Source: a virus
UHGV virus genome: UHGV-0210493
Strand: one strand, 5' to 3'
Length of the DNA stretch: 43,869 bases
Below are positions 3,065 to 42,172 of the stretch, piece by piece. Below the pieces are notes generated by a model that was not told the DNA's origin, ran no database searches, and saw only the letters and a program-made list of their open reading frames with translations. Within the stretch, counting starts at the first letter, position 1. Every line of letters begins with the position of its first letter. Position numbers and translations under genes: made by a program.

Positions 3065-3622
3065 ATGAAAAAGTACTTAATTATAATATCTGTTTTGTCG
3101 GTATGTTTAATCGCTGTTGCTTGTGGTTTTGCTTATACTTCCTTTACCATCACAGAACAAAGAGAGAACAATCACGTCTTGAGCAAGAGCTTAACAACCG
3201 CTAAATCTGAAATCAATGAAATGAAAAATGAGGTTGACGAAAAGAAAAAAAGCATTTCAGAACTCGAATCACAAATAAAAAAACTCGAAAAGGAAATTAA
3301 AGAAAATGATAGTAACGAAGTAGCATACAATGAAGAAACTGATGATTCGTTGCAAGTTGCCACTCAAAATGAAACACCTGATAATAATTTTTCATCTGAT
3401 AGCGTAGCGTCGGATTCAGCCAATAACACGGAAAAAACGGCCTCTTCAGCCGAAGAGCAAGTGGTTGTTGATACGCCGAAAAATGTGGAATATACTGGAG
3501 AGCCGTTTGCGGAATTTGCTGCAAAATACGGAATGACTGTCGAAGAATTAGCTCAAATGAATAACTTTTCCGATCCTAGTCAAATGATATTGATGAAGGG
3601 ACAAACCGTAACTGTCAAATAA
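3065..3622 (+). CDS. lipoprotein with coiled-coil and C-terminal LysM-like domain
   Basis: Signal peptide with lipobox LIAVAC-G; E/K-rich coiled coil; C-terminal YTGEPFAEFAAKYGMTVEELAQMN...GQTV LysM-like. Confidence 0.7.
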   Translation: MKKYLIIISVLSVCLIAVACGFAYTSFTITEQRENNHVLSKSLTTAKSEINEMKNEVDEKKKSISELESQIKKLEKEIKENDSNEVAYNEETDDSLQVATQNETPDNNFSSDSVASDSANNTEKTASSAEEQVVVDTPKNVEYTGEPFAEFAAKYGMTVEELAQMNNFSDPSQMILMKGQTVTVK

Positions 3623-3655
3623 ATAATTAATTTTTAATTATTAGGAGTTGATACA

Positions 3656-5056
3656 ATGAAAAAAGCGGGCTTATATATTCGAGTTTCCACTCCTCAACAA
3701 GAAAAAGAAGGCTACTCAATCGAAGCGCAAACGGAAAAACTCAACGCTTACGCAATAGCAAAAGATTATAAAGTGTTCAAGACCTATACAGATGCAGCCT
3801 TTTCTGGCGCTAAACTTGAACGGCCGGCGCTTAATGAAATGATCGAAGATATCGAAAACAATAAAATAGATGTCGTCATCGTTTACAAGCTTGACCGACT
3901 TTCTCGTAGCCAAAAGAACACTATGTATTTGATCGAAGATGTGTTTCTCAAAAATAATGTTGATTTCATCAGCATGCAAGAAAGTTTTGATACTACCACC
4001 TCTTTCGGTCGTGCAATGATCGGAATTCTTTCAGTTTTCGCCCAATTGGAGCGTGATAACATTACAGAACGCATGTCAATGGGGAAACTTGAACGTGTGA
4101 AACGTGGCTATTACATGGGTGGCGGTAATGTTCCATTTGGATATGAGTACAATCAAATTACAGGCGAATTAGAAATACAAGAAACACAAGCATTAGCTGT
4201 TAAGCGAATGTTTGAACTTTTTTTAAACGGACAAGCGATAAATAAGATTGTTTCTACATTGAAAAAAGAATTCCCTGTTTTTGAAGATAGCTTCATGGAC
4301 TCTACCGTCAGAAGAAGGCTTCAATCTCATTATTATTGCGGGAAACAGAAATATCAAAACAAAATATACGATGCTAAACACGAACCTATCGTTTCTACAA
4401 AAGACTTCAACAAAGCGCAGCGTTTAATTAGCAATAGACCTCACAGCAATGCGTTTAACCACAGTTATTTATTTTCGGGGCTCATTATATGCCACAAGTG
4501 CGGAAAGCCTTACAATGGATATGAGAGCGTTAGAACCGCCAACGGGAAAAAATATAAACATAAGTATTATCGTTGCTCGTGCAGGACTTACAAGCATAAG
4601 CAAAAATACGGTTGGGCTTGTTCAGGTAAATCTTATCGATGCGATTTTTTGGACGCAGCAATTATGAGTGAAATAAAAAAAAGAGCAGAAAATTCTAAGT
4701 TTGCATTAAAAGAAGATAATAACGAAGTAGATAATAAACCTATCATTAGAGAAATCGCCCGACTTAACGCTCAGCAATCAAAGCTATTAGATTTGTATCT
4801 ATCAGATAAAATATCCACAAATATCTTAGATAATAAAACCGATGAGCTTAAAGAGAAAATAGAAAAATTAGAATTACAGTTGAATCAGACGGTGAGTAAA
4901 AAAGATAAAGAAGAGTTTGAAAAATCATTAGAAGAGTTAGTTGATAAATTTGAAGAATTGGATTTTTCTACCAGACGGAGCTTGATAGAAAATATTATTG
5001 AGAAGATCGAGGTTGTTGACGATGAAATTACTATATACTTTTATGTGACCATTTAA
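3656..5056 (+). CDS. int: large serine recombinase (phage integrase)
   Basis: N-terminal resolvase catalytic domain (GLYIRVSTPQQ, active-site Ser), recombinase domain, Cys-rich zinc ribbon (CHKCG...CSC...C), C-terminal coiled coil. Confidence 0.9.
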   Translation: MKKAGLYIRVSTPQQEKEGYSIEAQTEKLNAYAIAKDYKVFKTYTDAAFSGAKLERPALNEMIEDIENNKIDVVIVYKLDRLSRSQKNTMYLIEDVFLKNNVDFISMQESFDTTTSFGRAMIGILSVFAQLERDNITERMSMGKLERVKRGYYMGGGNVPFGYEYNQITGELEIQETQALAVKRMFELFLNGQAINKIVSTLKKEFPVFEDSFMDSTVRRRLQSHYYCGKQKYQNKIYDAKHEPIVSTKDFNKAQRLISNRPHSNAFNHSYLFSGLIICHKCGKPYNGYESVRTANGKKYKHKYYRCSCRTYKHKQKYGWACSGKSYRCDFLDAAIMSEIKKRAENSKFALKEDNNEVDNKPIIREIARLNAQQSKLLDLYLSDKISTNILDNKTDELKEKIEKLELQLNQTVSKKDKEEFEKSLEELVDKFEELDFSTRRSLIENIIEKIEVVDDEITIYFYVTI

Positions 5057-32152: not shown

Positions 32153-32566
32153 TTAAATATCAAGGCTTCTATCCAATTCCTCAAAGAATTTGTCTCTTAA
32201 AGTGAATGCTTTATTCCTACCGCACTTGATAACTAGATTGTCAACTAAACCTTGCATCGTATACTGAGGAAATCGTTTGATATACAACTCTCGAATGATC
32301 GTCTCAGTGTCACTGCCGCACTCATCGAGAAGCTCTTGTACAATCTGCTTATTGCGTTTCAAACGCCGAATCTGTTTATCCGTCTCGATGGTCCACAATG
32401 TACCGAACATCAAATCGCTGTCGCTTCTTGTTCCCTTGATATCCCCATTAACATCCTCTTCTCGATACGGAACCCGAATCTCTTCTTCAAGCTTTCTGAC
32501 GTACTTATCCGTATCTCGGTAATCTTTCAACACTGCCTTGACTCGTTCAACACGCCATTTCTCCAA
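32153..32566 (-). CDS. ArpU-family late transcriptional regulator
   Basis: 137 aa; sigma-like regulator typical upstream of packaging genes in Firmicutes phages. Confidence 0.7.
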   Translation of the reverse strand: MEKWRVERVKAVLKDYRDTDKYVRKLEEEIRVPYREEDVNGDIKGTRSDSDLMFGTLWTIETDKQIRRLKRNKQIVQELLDECGSDTETIIRELYIKRFPQYTMQGLVDNLVIKCGRNKAFTLRDKFFEELDRSLDI

Positions 32567-32603
32567 TCACTTGCCCTCCCTGTTTGTCTACATATTATTA
32601 CGT

Positions 32604-32939
32604 TTAAATAAACATCATCACAATCCAACCAATGAGCATAAACATTAAATTGATTGATAAAACTCTTATAAAGCTACTCAAAATCGTTTCATTCTCATTG
32701 TTGGGTTGTTTCTGCATAACGATAAAGCTCACTACCACGTCTAATCCTGTTGCTTGTCCCCAAGTCAAAAGAGGCAGCCCGAACGTTTGAGGGATAACCC
32801 CATTCCAAAGGAACATAACGACATATCCCCCAAATGCGATTGAGAACCCTAAAACCGCAAACGCTCCAATCATTTTCAAAAACGCTACAGCAGCTTCGCC
32901 TATTACATCTTTTTCTTCATTCATTAAATTTTCTCCCAT
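32604..32939 (-). CDS. small membrane protein
   Basis: Three hydrophobic segments; ORF track. Confidence 0.45.
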   Translation of the reverse strand: MGENLMNEEKDVIGEAAVAFLKMIGAFAVLGFSIAFGGYVVMFLWNGVIPQTFGLPLLTWGQATGLDVVVSFIVMQKQPNNENETILSSFIRVLSINLMFMLIGWIVMMFI

Positions 32940-37034: not shown

Positions 37035-37376
37035 TTAAAAACCCCACCCTACTATTTTTTCTTCCACGATCATCAGTGCATCCATTGCACTTCTAGCAAT
37101 GCCGTGAACAATGCCGTCTTTTTGCAATACTTTATGAAAGGTAATTTGTTCTGGTCTTGCTTTGCCTTTTGCGTTCTTTACTTCGATATAGAAAACAGTT
37201 TGATCGTTCGGATTGTAGCCATAAATATCAAAATGTCCTTTTGGCAACAGCTTAATCACGCCACCAGAATCTGTTCTAACTTTGCCGGCATTCGTGCGAA
37301 AAGCTTTATAGCCTTTTTTCGACAATTCGATTAGTATTTCGTTTTGGATTGATTGTTCAGATTGCATTTTTATCAC
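37035..37376 (-). CDS. VRR-NUC domain nuclease
   Basis: ENxxL...G...R.N.G...D...IEVK...G.RPEQ pattern of VRR-NUC. Confidence 0.7.
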   Translation of the reverse strand: MIKMQSEQSIQNEILIELSKKGYKAFRTNAGKVRTDSGGVIKLLPKGHFDIYGYNPNDQTVFYIEVKNAKGKARPEQITFHKVLQKDGIVHGIARSAMDALMIVEEKIVGWGF

Positions 37377-37632
37377 CTGCCATTAATTGATTCCAATAAG
37401 CATCAATTTCTGTAGCGCGTTTAACTTTGTTTTTTGAACGTTTTTTTCTTACGCAACCACATGATGATGTATTGCCTGAAGTTAGATTTCCACCTAACAC
37501 TACCCTTTCATTTCCACATTCGCATTTACATAGCCATTTAGATTGTTTAGTTTTCTTATCAACACTATCCAATCTAATTACAGTAAGATGATCAAAAACT
37601 TCCCCAACTAGATCAATTCTTTTTCTGCTCAT
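37357..37632 (-). CDS. zinc-ribbon protein (CxC...CGC)
   Basis: WLCKCECGNE...SCGC cysteine cluster. Confidence 0.45.
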   Translation of the reverse strand: MSRKRIDLVGEVFDHLTVIRLDSVDKKTKQSKWLCKCECGNERVVLGGNLTSGNTSSCGCVRKKRSKNKVKRATEIDAYWNQLMAGDKNAI

Positions 37633-37950
37633 TTGGCACCTCCTAAAAGTGAATAGTCAGTCTAAACTATTCACCCACCTTCGTGCTTACTCCCCCAAGG
37701 GATATAGCGTTATAAGGTGAACAGTAGTGCATAGTTTGACCCAAATCCCTATTCTTTTCTTTATTTTTTATTTATTTAATTAACTACTTTTTTATTTACT
37801 CTTTTATATTAACTATTCACTACTATTCACTTTATATAAAAAAAGTAATATAAATATAGTAATAGCAAGGGTTTGAGGGAGTGAATAGTTGAGTTCTAAA
37901 CTATGCACTTACCCTTCACTACTATGCACTTTTCTGATAATTGGTATAGA
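37633..37950. other. putative origin of replication: 8 or more copies of the 9-mer GTGAATAGT / ACTATTCAC (variants GTGCATAGT, GTGAACAGT) flanking a >80% AT core
   Basis: Iterons at 37649-57, 37666-74, 37709-17, 37721-29, 37812-20, 37822-30, 37881-89, 37900-08, 37921-29; AT-rich 37750-37860; directly downstream of the primase gene. Confidence 0.55.
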
Positions 37951-40278
37951 CTAATTAAACAAATTTCGAATTCCAATATTTTCGTAAGGCTGACTTTCCT
38001 CAATTAAATCTATACCTTCGTACATAATTCCTTGGTTAGTTTTCTTTTTGTTAAATTTGTTACTCATTTCTTTACCGAATTTCGTACTATTCATTTCGTA
38101 CTGACCATTTTCATTGGCCCAAGTTTTGTACGCTTGATAAAAATCTTTAGCTTTTACTCGCTTATTTATCCCTCTCTCACAACAATCATTGATAAATGCT
38201 GCAGTTACGTCCATTTCTTCTCGATATTCTTTTGAAGCATCCTCAACGATTTTTGGTCGTTTCAAACCTTCTCTCTGCCACATCAGACAACCTTCTACTA
38301 TCCAATTCAAAATTCCGACTGATTCACGCTTAAGTTTGTATTTAAGGTTCTTGTCTTTCTTGTGATCAGGAATCTGTATGGTAAAAGGGATTAAATTCAT
38401 TCTTCGCCATATACCGTCATCCGTACCTCGTATGATCGGTTTGTGGTTAGTTGCTAACCAAAGCTTGAATTCTGGTGTAAATTCAAATTCTTTCCCGTAT
38501 AAAAAGCGAGCAGTTACTTTGTCTCCGCCAGTCAACTGCTTGACCAAACCCTCATCCATTCTCACACCTTCATTGGGTTCGGATGATGTTACTAATCGAG
38601 CGCCTTTCAAACGTGCAATATCTGTATTAGCTCCACCATTTGCTTTTCTAACCATAATCGTGTCTGCTTGCATGTTTGTCGCATAGCTGCCCATGATATA
38701 TGAGATAGTATCTAGAAACACAGATTTACCATTGCTACCAGCGCCGAACAGCACGAACATACTCTGCTCTCTTGTGGACCCAGTGAGTGAGTAGCCAACT
38801 GCCTTTTGAACATATCTAATCAACTCTTGGTCGTTATCAAATATTTGATTTAAAAATTCAGTCCATTGCGGCGCATCGATTTTATCTGTATATTCAATAT
38901 TTGCTATTCGTGTAAACTTTTTGTCTATGTTGTGTTCGTGCAATACTCCGCTAATCAAATCTAAATATCCATTTTGTGTATTTAGAAGTGTTGTGTCGCT
39001 ATCAAATTCATCTGGTAAAACCGATACACGGTGCATGATTTGTTCTCTCATAGCTTTCTTTGCAGAATTTCCACGGGAACGCTTGATGTGTTTCCTAAAG
39101 GCTTCTTCAATTTTTTCTGGATCTTCACAGTCGGCAGGGATATAAACTTTCTCATTTTTCATCATGTCAACTGTGGTATCAATCATTTTTGATATTTCAC
39201 CTGTATCATCAATCTTCCAACTCTTGCCATCGTAGAAATAAAACTCTTTATTAATGTATGAGTATCTGACTAAGGTTCCATACACATCCATAAATCTTTC
39301 TGCATTCCCGGTGTCATCATAGGAGTAGAATTTGTCTTCTTTCTTTTCTTCAAACTCTTTAATGAAAATTCTGAAACCATGCGACTGGCTAGGCGTATAG
39401 GTATTTTCACATTCATGGATTGCTTTGTTTAATAAGTTTCCGCCGTATGTTGAATTTGGTGGTCTACGTTCGTCATACTTTTGTCTAAATAAAGACGAAT
39501 CTCTGAAAATGCTGTCCATTTTTTCAAAGTCTCTACCGGTCCAGAATGCTAACATGTTTGCAAAAGCAATATCTGCTTCGGATTGAGAGTCGTAAAAAGC
39601 TTCCCAGCCGCCTTCCATAAAAACCTTGAATTTTGCGCCCTGTTTGCTTTCGTATGCTTTTTGGACTATTTCTGATTCTGATAGGTCTATTTTCGATTCT
39701 GAGACGTTTTGATTGTTAAATCGGACAATCTTATCATCTCCAATATATCGGTTGTATAGCAGTTTTAGAGTGGTTTCTGATGGTTCAATGACTTGGTTAT
39801 ATTTGCGATCGACAGTATTGCCTGTCATAACGAAAAATCTACCCGAATCATACATTTCAACATTGCCTTTTCTACGCCTGTGACCAGGCAGCTTTCCTTT
39901 ACAGATAATGTGGATACCATTGCCAGATTGAGAATATTCAGCATAAGATTTAATCGATGTTACAAACTCGTACATCATATTTGTTTCAATATCGCCTTGT
40001 AAATATCGTTGAATTTCACCTTCGATATTATCAATGTCAATTCCGAAGTAAGGTTTTTTGAAATAAAAACCTAATCCATTACAGTTATATTTTTCTATTG
40101 CAGAGAGTGCGGTCTGATAATCAGACCACGTACTCTCATCATTTGATTTACCATTGTTTCCAGTGTGTGGATCGACTGGTATTTTGGTGTGTTTTTTTCT
40201 TTCTTCGTTCCATACCAATCGATATACACACCACTGTTTTTGCTGCTTTAGTTCTTCTGGAATGTGTTCATATGCCAC
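37951..40278 (-). CDS. bifunctional primase-polymerase / D5-type NTPase (P4-alpha-like replication protein)
   Basis: N-terminal prim-pol domain; central D5_N/primase-C region; Walker A LFGAGSNGKS; GTG start with AAGGGAG RBS. Confidence 0.85.
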   Translation of the reverse strand: MAYEHIPEELKQQKQWCVYRLVWNEERKKHTKIPVDPHTGNNGKSNDESTWSDYQTALSAIEKYNCNGLGFYFKKPYFGIDIDNIEGEIQRYLQGDIETNMMYEFVTSIKSYAEYSQSGNGIHIICKGKLPGHRRRKGNVEMYDSGRFFVMTGNTVDRKYNQVIEPSETTLKLLYNRYIGDDKIVRFNNQNVSESKIDLSESEIVQKAYESKQGAKFKVFMEGGWEAFYDSQSEADIAFANMLAFWTGRDFEKMDSIFRDSSLFRQKYDERRPPNSTYGGNLLNKAIHECENTYTPSQSHGFRIFIKEFEEKKEDKFYSYDDTGNAERFMDVYGTLVRYSYINKEFYFYDGKSWKIDDTGEISKMIDTTVDMMKNEKVYIPADCEDPEKIEEAFRKHIKRSRGNSAKKAMREQIMHRVSVLPDEFDSDTTLLNTQNGYLDLISGVLHEHNIDKKFTRIANIEYTDKIDAPQWTEFLNQIFDNDQELIRYVQKAVGYSLTGSTREQSMFVLFGAGSNGKSVFLDTISYIMGSYATNMQADTIMVRKANGGANTDIARLKGARLVTSSEPNEGVRMDEGLVKQLTGGDKVTARFLYGKEFEFTPEFKLWLATNHKPIIRGTDDGIWRRMNLIPFTIQIPDHKKDKNLKYKLKRESVGILNWIVEGCLMWQREGLKRPKIVEDASKEYREEMDVTAAFINDCCERGINKRVKAKDFYQAYKTWANENGQYEMNSTKFGKEMSNKFNKKKTNQGIMYEGIDLIEESQPYENIGIRNLFN

Positions 40279-40831: not shown

Positions 40832-42172
40832 TTATAGTAGGTTTAGTCTTTTGGCTTGAAAGAATGCCCAACCTTTTTTATAACCTCTAGCATCAGCCAT
40901 TTTGTATAAATCGCTGACACTCTCAGCTTCTTCTGGTTCCATTGCTGCATACTTTCCTGTATCTAGATTGATTTTTATTTCTTGTAGTTCCGCACTTTCG
41001 ATTGTTTCAAGGTTTGCAGAACGCTCTTCTTTCGGTATCTCATGCCCACAATAAGGACAAATATTTCCAACTTCACTTGCATAGGTGCCGAAGCAATTAG
41101 GGCATTCCTTGATAGGAATAACGTCCTCTTTCTTTCGGCTTTTTTTACTTGCCAAGCTCCATTGCCTTGGCATATCCGGCAAACCATGCTCGTTCACGTT
41201 CCCGACATGATCAATGATTGTAGATATTTTATTTGGCTTGTAGCGCATCCCTCTCATGGCTTGCTGGATGAATAGAGAGAGCGACTTGGTGGGCCTTAGC
41301 ATTATCACCGTTGAGCAATCTGGTACATCGAAGCCCTCTCCGATCAAATCAACATTTGTCAGAATTTGAATATCGTGATTACGAAACTTTTCAATAATCA
41401 AATCACGTTCCTGTTTATTCGTTTTCCCGTCAATATGTGCCGCTTGGTATCCAGCTTCAATAAATAAATCTCTTGTCTTTTCACTTGATTCAATACTGTG
41501 GCAATATACGATCGCTTGCTCACCTTCCGCTAGTTTCTTGTAGTGTTTGATAACGTCACCGTATATAGCTTTTTGTTCCAATGCTTTATCTATACTGCCT
41601 TTTGAGAATTCAGACATAGAATTCATTTTTAAAACTGAAGTATCGATCAACGCTGGTGCATAGTATTTAAATGGAGTTAGTCGTTTATTTTCAATCAACC
41701 ATTTAACTGATACTCCCTCTATCAACAAATCGTTGACATCTCCCAAACCGCTACCGTTTAATCTGACTGGTGTTGCGGTAAAGCCTATTCGTTGGACATC
41801 TGAATAATATTCATAGATTTTCTTATAACTACTTGCCAAGCTATGGTGATTTTCATCCGTTATGATCAGCTTAGGTTTCTTTATTTTTCCTAGCTTTCTC
41901 ACGATCGTTTGAACCATTCCGAAAACAACAAATCTCATATCCACGCCATGTGTTTCAAAAGTATTCCTTATTTGGTCAATTAGTTCTTTCCTATGAACCA
42001 AGAACAAAACGTGATTGCCTTTTAAAGTCGTCTTACGAGCGATCTCTGCAATCACTACACTTTTGCCCGAACCGCATGGCGAAACAATACAAGGAGCACG
42101 ATAGCCATTGATAAAAGACTCTCTAGCCCTCTTTATCAAATCTTCCTGATAGTCGTATAATTCAAAGGTCAA
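40832..42172 (-). CDS. SF2 DEAD/DEAH-box helicase with C-terminal zinc ribbon
   Basis: Walker A SPCGSGKS; DENHH (DExH); helicase C motifs; CPNC...CPYC. Confidence 0.8.
   Translation of the reverse strand: MTFELYDYQEDLIKRARESFINGYRAPCIVSPCGSGKSVVIAEIARKTTLKGNHVLFLVHRKELIDQIRNTFETHGVDMRFVVFGMVQTIVRKLGKIKKPKLIITDENHHSLASSYKKIYEYYSDVQRIGFTATPVRLNGSGLGDVNDLLIEGVSVKWLIENKRLTPFKYYAPALIDTSVLKMNSMSEFSKGSIDKALEQKAIYGDVIKHYKKLAEGEQAIVYCHSIESSEKTRDLFIEAGYQAAHIDGKTNKQERDLIIEKFRNHDIQILTNVDLIGEGFDVPDCSTVIMLRPTKSLSLFIQQAMRGMRYKPNKISTIIDHVGNVNEHGLPDMPRQWSLASKKSRKKEDVIPIKECPNCFGTYASEVGNICPYCGHEIPKEERSANLETIESAELQEIKINLDTGKYAAMEPEEAESVSDLYKMADARGYKKGWAFFQAKRLNLL

Follow-up and report, generated by a model that had tools for sequence, protein, structure and literature searches.

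The window, by which we mean the whole 43,869-bp stretch of DNA analysed here, is a complete temperate siphovirus prophage of Enterococcus, with genes for a serine integrase, an endolysin, tail proteins, a tape measure protein, the major head protein, a portal and the large terminase (TerL). Within it, a 318-bp gap at 37633-37950 separates two minus-strand genes, one encoding a 775-aa primase-helicase (37951-40278) and the other a 91-aa protein (37357-37632), and because the primase is read from the minus strand the gap lies downstream of it. On the upstream side of the gap, the minus strand encodes Gam-like, Sak4-like annealase, SNF2/DEAD helicase and DUF669 single-strand-binding proteins together with the primase-helicase. 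A first-pass annotation had described the gap as a putative iteron-bearing replication origin that follows the prim-pol/D5 gene and lacks coding potential; we found the same placement and no ORF of ≥40 aa inside 37633-37950.

The closest deposited phage was phiEG37K of Enterococcus gallinarum (complete genome), whose primase is 99% identical to that of the window and whose intergenic region is 92% identical. Local alignment with phiEG37K lost identity just beyond the RBS of the next gene, which global alignment traced to the extra 91-aa ORF in the window, with identity resuming in the gene beyond. This ORF (minus strand) resembles an internal part of an HNH endonuclease (phrog_374, E=3e-20, profile positions 191-257 of 617), as though a truncated homing endonuclease had been inserted at the margin of the putative origin. 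In phiEG37K, which lacks the ORF, the origin region directly adjoins the next gene, a VRR-NUC/Holliday-junction-resolvase-like gene with homology to window positions 37035-37376. Extra DNA was also seen in a related viral contig (L016), ~260-500 nt past the primase stop and before the next shared gene; a small helix-turn-helix protein resembling XRE seems to be encoded there. The junction holding these two pieces of extra DNA may be an insertion hot spot.

Searching the window for the degenerate 9-mer GTGMAYAGT gave 10 matches, 9 of them within the 281 bp of 37649-37929; dinucleotide shuffles contained 0.88 matches on average and 4 at most, and none of 100 shuffles reached 10. When one mismatch to GTGAATAGT was allowed over the whole window, the frequency was no higher than chance, indicating that the signal is the local cluster. 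The sole match outside the gap, GTGCATAGT at 41656-41664 (+), lies within the gene for the SNF2/DEAD helicase and can be explained by chance. The nine clustered sites are located at 37649-57(+), 37666-74(-), 37717-25(+), 37727-35(+), 37812-20(-), 37822-30(-), 37881-89(+), 37900-08(-) and 37921-29(-), which confirmed the at least nine iterons in direct and inverted orientation reported at first pass, and our analysis added a tenth, degenerate copy, GTGAAGGGT, at 37911-19(-). The repeat unit is 9 bp long and is conserved over at least 8-9 positions.

Read in primase sense, the ten iterons begin 21 nt past the primase stop codon with a proximal cluster (37881-37929) of three minus-strand copies spaced 10-11 bp apart, GTGCATAGT (37921-29), GTGAAGGGT (37911-19) and GTGCATAGT (37900-08), followed by one inverted GTGAATAGT (+, 37881-89). 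Next come a conserved box A (CAAACCCTTGCTAT), a T-rich run, a tandem pair of GTGAATAGT on the minus strand (37812-37830, 10-bp spacing), a 74-bp A-rich stretch and a pair of inverted copies, GTGAACAGT and GTGCATAGT, in tandem on the plus strand (37717-37735, again with 10-bp spacing). The array is completed by a conserved box B (CCCTTGGGGGAGTAAG) and a distal palindromic pair (37649-37674), in which GTGAATAGT (+, 37649-57) and its reverse complement (37666-74) are separated by an 8-bp spacer and which abuts the RBS of the next gene. The two tandem pairs face each other across the AT-rich segment 37738-37811, the plus-strand pair flanking it on one side and forming a 26-nt inverted repeat, 88% complementary, with 37811-37836. 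Both the two tandem pairs and the two inverted pairs (spacers of 8 and 10 bp) of the first-pass annotation were thereby recovered.

Between the repeats the DNA is exceptionally AT-rich. Positions 37750-37860 are 87.4% AT, and no other 100-bp duplex in the window is as unstable as 37761-37861, whose nearest-neighbour dG of -97.1 is 4.7 s.d. from the window mean (-128.4, s.d. 6.7). The main AT-rich stretch, the presumed DNA unwinding element, spans 37738-37811 (82% AT, or 90% over 37750-37811; T-rich on the plus strand), and a second stretch at 37831-37865 (91% AT, A-rich on the plus strand) forms a partial inverted repeat with 37783-37812. The AT content of more than 80% previously assigned to the core therefore holds, but the core is not simply flanked by iterons, as it is split by the pair at 37812-37830. 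Cumulative GC skew, suggested earlier as a check on the origin, showed no inflection at 37.8 kb: skew is negative, with a cumulative curve that declines almost monotonically over the region and the ~30 kb before it, and since all genes lie on one strand this analysis was uninformative on the origin. An Rfam search of the region matched no RNA family.

The position of the gap directly upstream of the next same-strand ORF, and the fact that AT-rich DNA with repeats is also typical of promoters, would suit an explanation in which the repeats serve a promoter for the downstream genes, as its operators or activator sites, rather than an origin. A scan for sigma-70-like promoters and terminators found none on the coding strand, and the single weak promoter-like match, on the opposite (+) strand at 37831-37860, is fewer than in shuffled sequences (1 vs 3.6). 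Furthermore, the motif is absent from the other intergenic regions of the prophage, the one extra copy being that inside the helicase gene; the gene downstream varies (the HNH-like ORF is absent in phiEG37K), whereas the repeats remain tied to the 3' end of the primase gene; and in phages A2 and phiadh the syntenic regions bear an origin annotation. We therefore consider promoter sites a very improbable explanation, and the late-regulator promoter array that had been named as the alternative in the first-pass annotation found no support.

To place the gap among its relatives, we used the primase as a tblastn query, which yielded 87 phage records covering most of the protein, and compared the layout in 29 relatives (genomes and viral contigs), taking from each the final 1.5 kb of the primase gene and the 1.2 kb that follow it. 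Nearly all relatives that have a full-length homologue and a low-GC genome possess a gap of 180-440 bp whose elements are placed in the same way, and the succession of repeats, AT-rich stretch and repeats was common to ~25 relatives, in spite of at least eight different iteron sequences: GTGMATAGT, GGGATAGT/GGGAGGGT, GGATAGTT/GGACAGTT, TGACGGAT, ACGGGAGGA, TGTATACC, TGGGAGGG, TATGCAGG and others. The exceptions were two relatives without clear iterons (L009 and L034) and one with a gap of just 130 bp (L031). Many of the iterons have a common 3' half (ATAGTT or AGGGTT) and a divergent 5' half. At the syntenic place, Listeria phage PSA carries GGTGGATAGTT/GGTGGAGGGTT repeats, and Bacillus phage phi105 carries a perfect 16-nt inverted repeat, TGTTACTTTTGTTACT, around an AT-rich core. 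A search of the plasmid database gave a single match, and a distant one, to a Vagococcus replicon in which the module is the same and the iterons are of the GGGATAGT type.

Two of these records deserve separate comment. The Vagococcus replicon (L045; NZ_CP093385.1, Vagococcus sp. CY52-2, a 78.9-kb circular 'plasmid') has TTAGGGATAGT/TTAGGGAGGGT iterons at 3456-3737 and the gene order helicase, DUF669, primase, gap and VRR-NUC, as in the window, and may be a phage-plasmid or an unintegrated phage; the resistance prediction 'OXA-641' in this record concerns a hypothetical protein of 73 aa and seems spurious. Contig JAVEPM010000029.1 of an archaeal MAG bin, Methanolobus (L009/L032), encodes a full-length primase-helicase, 46% identical to that of the window, with no clear iteron array downstream of it, and may in fact come from a bacterial phage and have been binned wrongly.

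Sites read by a co-evolving protein would be expected to keep their arrangement while their sequence changes, as these repeats do. The gap is a mosaic junction, next to which a cassette has been swapped on one side and genes have been inserted on the other, as a decayed remnant or recombination scar might be whose repeats persist by descent without present function. However, layout and copy number are kept across relatives that share 46-60% primase identity and have different iterons, which requires selection on the arrangement and leaves the notion of a functionless remnant hardly credible.

The two boxes were conserved independently of the iterons. Box A (37862-37875, minus strand) is kept in most relatives whatever their iteron type, with an exact CC[CGT]TTG core at +46 to +79 in ~20 of the 29 and near-variants in others, while box B (37686-37701, minus strand) was found in relatives with other iterons, namely L008, L016, L017, L019, L030 and A2, with the version AACCCTTGGGAGAGTAAG in phiadh. 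In primase sense, the boxes across relatives with different iterons read CAAACCCTTGnTAT and (A)ACCCTTGgGaGAGTAAG, and box-carrying relatives comprise L004, L008, L016-L024, L029, L030, L033, L038, L041 (A2) and L042 (phiadh). The reverse complement of box A contains AAGGGTT, that is, the 3' half of the AGGGTT iteron class. Together, boxes A and B could make up a second layer of the origin, as start sites or as docking sites for a conserved factor.

We then considered the protein that would read the iterons. The 775-aa product of 37951-40278 (minus strand) is the presumed origin-binding initiator; it matched the DNA primase family PHROG 1829 at E=4e-303, and Pfam resolved it into prim-pol, NrS-1-type helix-bundle, D5_N, SF3 ATPase (DUF5906) and Pox_D5 C-terminal domains. 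Comparison by phmmer with PriRep5 of SaPI5 (7OLA/7OM0) gave E=2e-46 over residues 5-298 and 427-757, and a profile of the C-terminal 200 aa matched 7OLA at 6e-12. An AlphaFold2 model of residues 576-775, built with 107 homologues in the alignment, had a mean pLDDT of 85, exceeding 90 over the C-terminal domain and reaching 90-97 over the part with the recognition helix and wing. It places a predicted recognition helix H3 at residues 731-741 (STKFGKEMSNK; 38056-38088, minus strand) and a predicted beta-hairpin wing at residues 743-758 (NKKKT-NQ-GIMYEGIDL; strands 743-747 and 750-758; 38005-38052, minus strand).

Foldseek searches with this model matched the ASFV C962R primase-helicase and SaPI5 PriRep, and the isolated domain matched the DNA-bound RFX DNA-binding domain 1DP7 (TM 0.70 on the target, rmsd 2.2 A, 72 columns), so a C-terminal winged-helix fold like those of RFX and PriRep is predicted with high confidence. 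The RFX winged helix reads the major groove by its wing and not by helix 3, and a reading of this style would fit a location of iteron specificity in the wing. In SaPI Rep proteins, iterons are recognised by a winged-helix domain within the C-terminal domain, and PriRep5 without its C-terminal domain (residues 676-790) showed altered binding of origin DNA in EMSA (PMC9371898).

A more direct connection between protein and repeats came from viral contigs that are otherwise near-identical. We compared two contigs with GTGMATAGT iterons (L014 and L001) with two that have GGGATAGT iterons (L016 and L017). Nucleotide identity between the two types was mostly 96-100%, with isolated 50-nt windows down to 84-88%, until ~100-130 nt before the primase stop; it then dropped to 32-76% up to the start of the next gene, beyond which it returned to 86-100%. 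In the protein, the change was limited to the last ~33 residues (KKKTNQGIMYEGIDLIEESQPYENIGIRNLFN in the window vs KKKSGGVIVYEGISLTDEFTTYENQGIRNLFN in L017). L016 and L017 also differ from each other within the exchanged tract, which makes them two alleles with about the same left boundary, and in both alleles the tract begins at the predicted wing. These comparisons indicated that the iterons travel with the 3' end of the primase gene and not with the downstream gene. The exchangeable specificity cassette would correspond in the window to 37633-38050 (minus strand), comprising about the last 33 primase codons (wing and C-terminal tail) and the whole intergenic origin region.

Since phages that are near-identical elsewhere have swapped this segment of the protein jointly with the iterons, the winged helix probably determines iteron specificity through its wing and tail (residues ~743-775), and from the same joint exchange we infer that the C-terminal winged helix of the primase-helicase binds the iterons. 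A search across all relatives for a simple code relating wing residues to iteron bases gave no obvious rule. The joint exchange, seen in two exchanged alleles, could partly reflect physical linkage rather than function, as the wing adjoins the iterons. Only this exchange of the wing and the iteron origin as one ~420-440-bp cassette goes beyond routine annotation; that such a portable cassette, recombining as a unit, sets replication specificity throughout this phage group is a tentative proposal to which we would give a little less than an even chance.

Three other genes of the module were considered as specificity partners and rejected. For the DUF669 gene, a divergent patch at first appeared to follow the type of iteron, until it emerged that the allele of L016 and L017 is also carried by L001 and L015, which have window-type iterons; the allele of the Sak4-like gene was without link to iteron type, L016 having that of L014; and the SNF2 helicase gene was near-identical in the three contigs compared (L014, L016 and L017). 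The replication module of these three contigs is itself mosaic upstream of the primase (locus ~1850-2570 and ~3480-3980), where L017 has a different Sak4-like allele, and the patch in the DUF669 gene is a central one of ~290 nt in two alleles that assort independently of iteron type.

These data also bear on the idea that the region is an origin whose iterons are bound by some other phage or host protein, with the primase C-terminus co-varying through adjacency only. The link of wing to iterons comes from two exchanged alleles and from adjacent sequences, and boxes A and B, being conserved, hint at contacts between the origin and at least one additional factor, both of which would suit another binder. 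Against it, iteron type among close relatives is not matched by the alleles of the DUF669, Sak4-like or SNF2 helicase genes, the exchanged tract starts right at the predicted wing in both independent alleles, and the primase has a homologue in PriRep5 of SaPI5, which binds its origin with a contribution from the C-terminal domain (PMC9371898). A different iteron-binding protein is thus unlikely in our view, if less so than promoter sites.

Taken together, the comparisons supported the origin reading of the first-pass annotation through the homology of the initiator, the annotated origins of A2 and phiadh, the kept layout and the tie between the iterons and the primase 3' end; the local enrichment of the repeats, the unstable AT-rich core and the gene content of the module point the same way. 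We conclude, with a probability of roughly 0.85 that rests on sequence and structure prediction, that 37633-37950 is the replication origin of a temperate Enterococcus siphovirus prophage, at which the primase-helicase acts as initiator and binds the iterons through its C-terminal winged helix.

In the mechanism that we propose, the 775-aa primase-helicase encoded immediately upstream would serve as the initiator, its C-terminal winged helix binding the ten 9-bp GTG[A/C]ATAGT iterons in the proximal cluster, in the tandem pairs facing each other across the 74-bp stretch of 82-90% AT, and in the distal palindromic pair. Binding on both sides would allow SF3 helicase rings to assemble and melt the AT-rich element, after which the prim-pol domain of the same protein could prime DNA synthesis. 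The SNF2-like helicase, the DUF669 single-strand-binding protein and the Sak4-like annealase may then support progression of the fork or a switch to recombination-dependent replication. This model leaves boxes A and B unexplained.

The analysis provides a well-supported origin annotation for a family of temperate phages of Enterococcus, Listeria, Lactobacillus and Vagococcus, in whose records the gap is mostly left unannotated, and it indicates a small, testable specificity determinant in which the wing of the C-terminal winged helix is paired with 9-bp iterons. If the cassette proposal is true, the cassette would define replicon-specificity types among phages of Enterococcus and other Lactobacillales and would offer a natural series pairing wing sequence with iteron sequence. 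Possible uses include phage resistance by origin titration, replicons or vectors for enterococci that are built from phages, and forecasts as to which phages or satellites in the same cell can have an initiator in common. Our general understanding of the working of phage origins is unchanged.

Among known systems, lambdoid origins have their iterons inside the initiator gene, and the lambdoid initiator recruits a separate helicase loader and host DnaB. In the window the iterons lie between genes and the candidate initiator includes a helicase of its own, so the region is not an origin of the lambda type. The window protein falls into the 'P4 family' of primases, as sources name it, and carries the Pox_D5 C-terminal domain. 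P4 alpha likewise combines primase, helicase and a C-terminal winged-helix origin-binding domain; the P4 ori is not known to lie beside the 3' end of the alpha gene and needs a second site, crr. Searches with the window protein by sequence or by fold retrieved no structure of P4 alpha. The recognition sites of the NrS-1 prim-pol, 5'-TTTGGTTA and 5'-GTG(A/G) (PMC8718748), were compared with the iteron and with boxes A and B and set aside, since the GTGA resemblance is too short to mean anything. In phage 2972, and in the majority of phages of Streptococcus, the predicted origin is located downstream of the replication module (PMC13575424); Streptococcus phage primases are distant homologues of the window protein, the 319 Streptococcus records that matched covering the primase only in part.

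The Rep-ori systems of SaPIs and other PICIs are closer, and the region would work in their manner and in that of the A2/phiadh origins. In the SaPI ori, six to twelve penta- or hexanucleotide iterons directly follow the rep ORF; the centre is AT-rich and has at least two iterons on each side, in opposite directions (PMC9371898). The window shows the same iteron number, downstream place, AT centre and opposed iterons (at least two per side), and its candidate initiator is a homologous fused primase/SF3 helicase with a predicted C-terminal winged helix, as in PriRep5 (7OLA/7OM0). It differs in having 9-bp rather than 5-6-bp iterons, in additional replication-recombination genes, and in being a full prophage with virion genes instead of a satellite island. 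Given the full-prophage carrier and the 9-bp iterons, the element is not a SaPI.

The closest counterparts are origins annotated in Lactobacillus phages. In the L. casei phage A2, the GenBank rep_origin (32208-32717 of AJ251789.2) starts at the primase stop codon and comprises three copies of ACGGGAGGAT, an AT-rich core and four copies of TCCTCCCGT (direct, then inverted), with boxes resembling A and B. The A2 module has the order NTP-binding/Sak4-like, helicase, DUF669-type single-strand-binding protein, primase and origin, as in the window, and its primase is 53% identical. A paper by Moscoso and Suarez (Virology 2000, pmid 10891412) is said to concern, by its title, the phage A2 origin. A2 differs in its iteron (ACGGGAGGAT vs GTGMATAGT), host genus and downstream gene, and its annotated origin runs into the next ORF. 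In the L. gasseri phage phiadh, the rep_origin is annotated at 13084-13469 of AJ131519.1, directly after the primase ORF771 (49% identical). Its iterons, GTGTATAGTT/GTGTAGGGTT, are nearly those of the window (GTG[A/C]ATAGT/GTGAAGGGT) and its box B, AACCCTTGGGAGAGTAAG, is almost identical; the fourth iteron base and the wing sequence differ, and more tandem copies lie on the distal side.

The window thus displays the module order with a non-coding gap after a D5/P4-type primase-helicase, an order also seen in A2, phiadh, PSA and phiEG37K. Its short direct and inverted repeats surround an AT-rich segment, as in A2 and phiadh, and the succession of proximal direct repeats, box A, tandem pair, AT core, inverted repeats, box B and distal pair is that of the A2/phiadh layout. 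Very probably, then, the region is an ordinary iteron origin of a type already mapped in related Lactobacillus phages, and on the strength of its position, module, layout and iterons near-identical to those of phiadh, we file the gap as an A2/phiadh-type phage origin, putative as to function.
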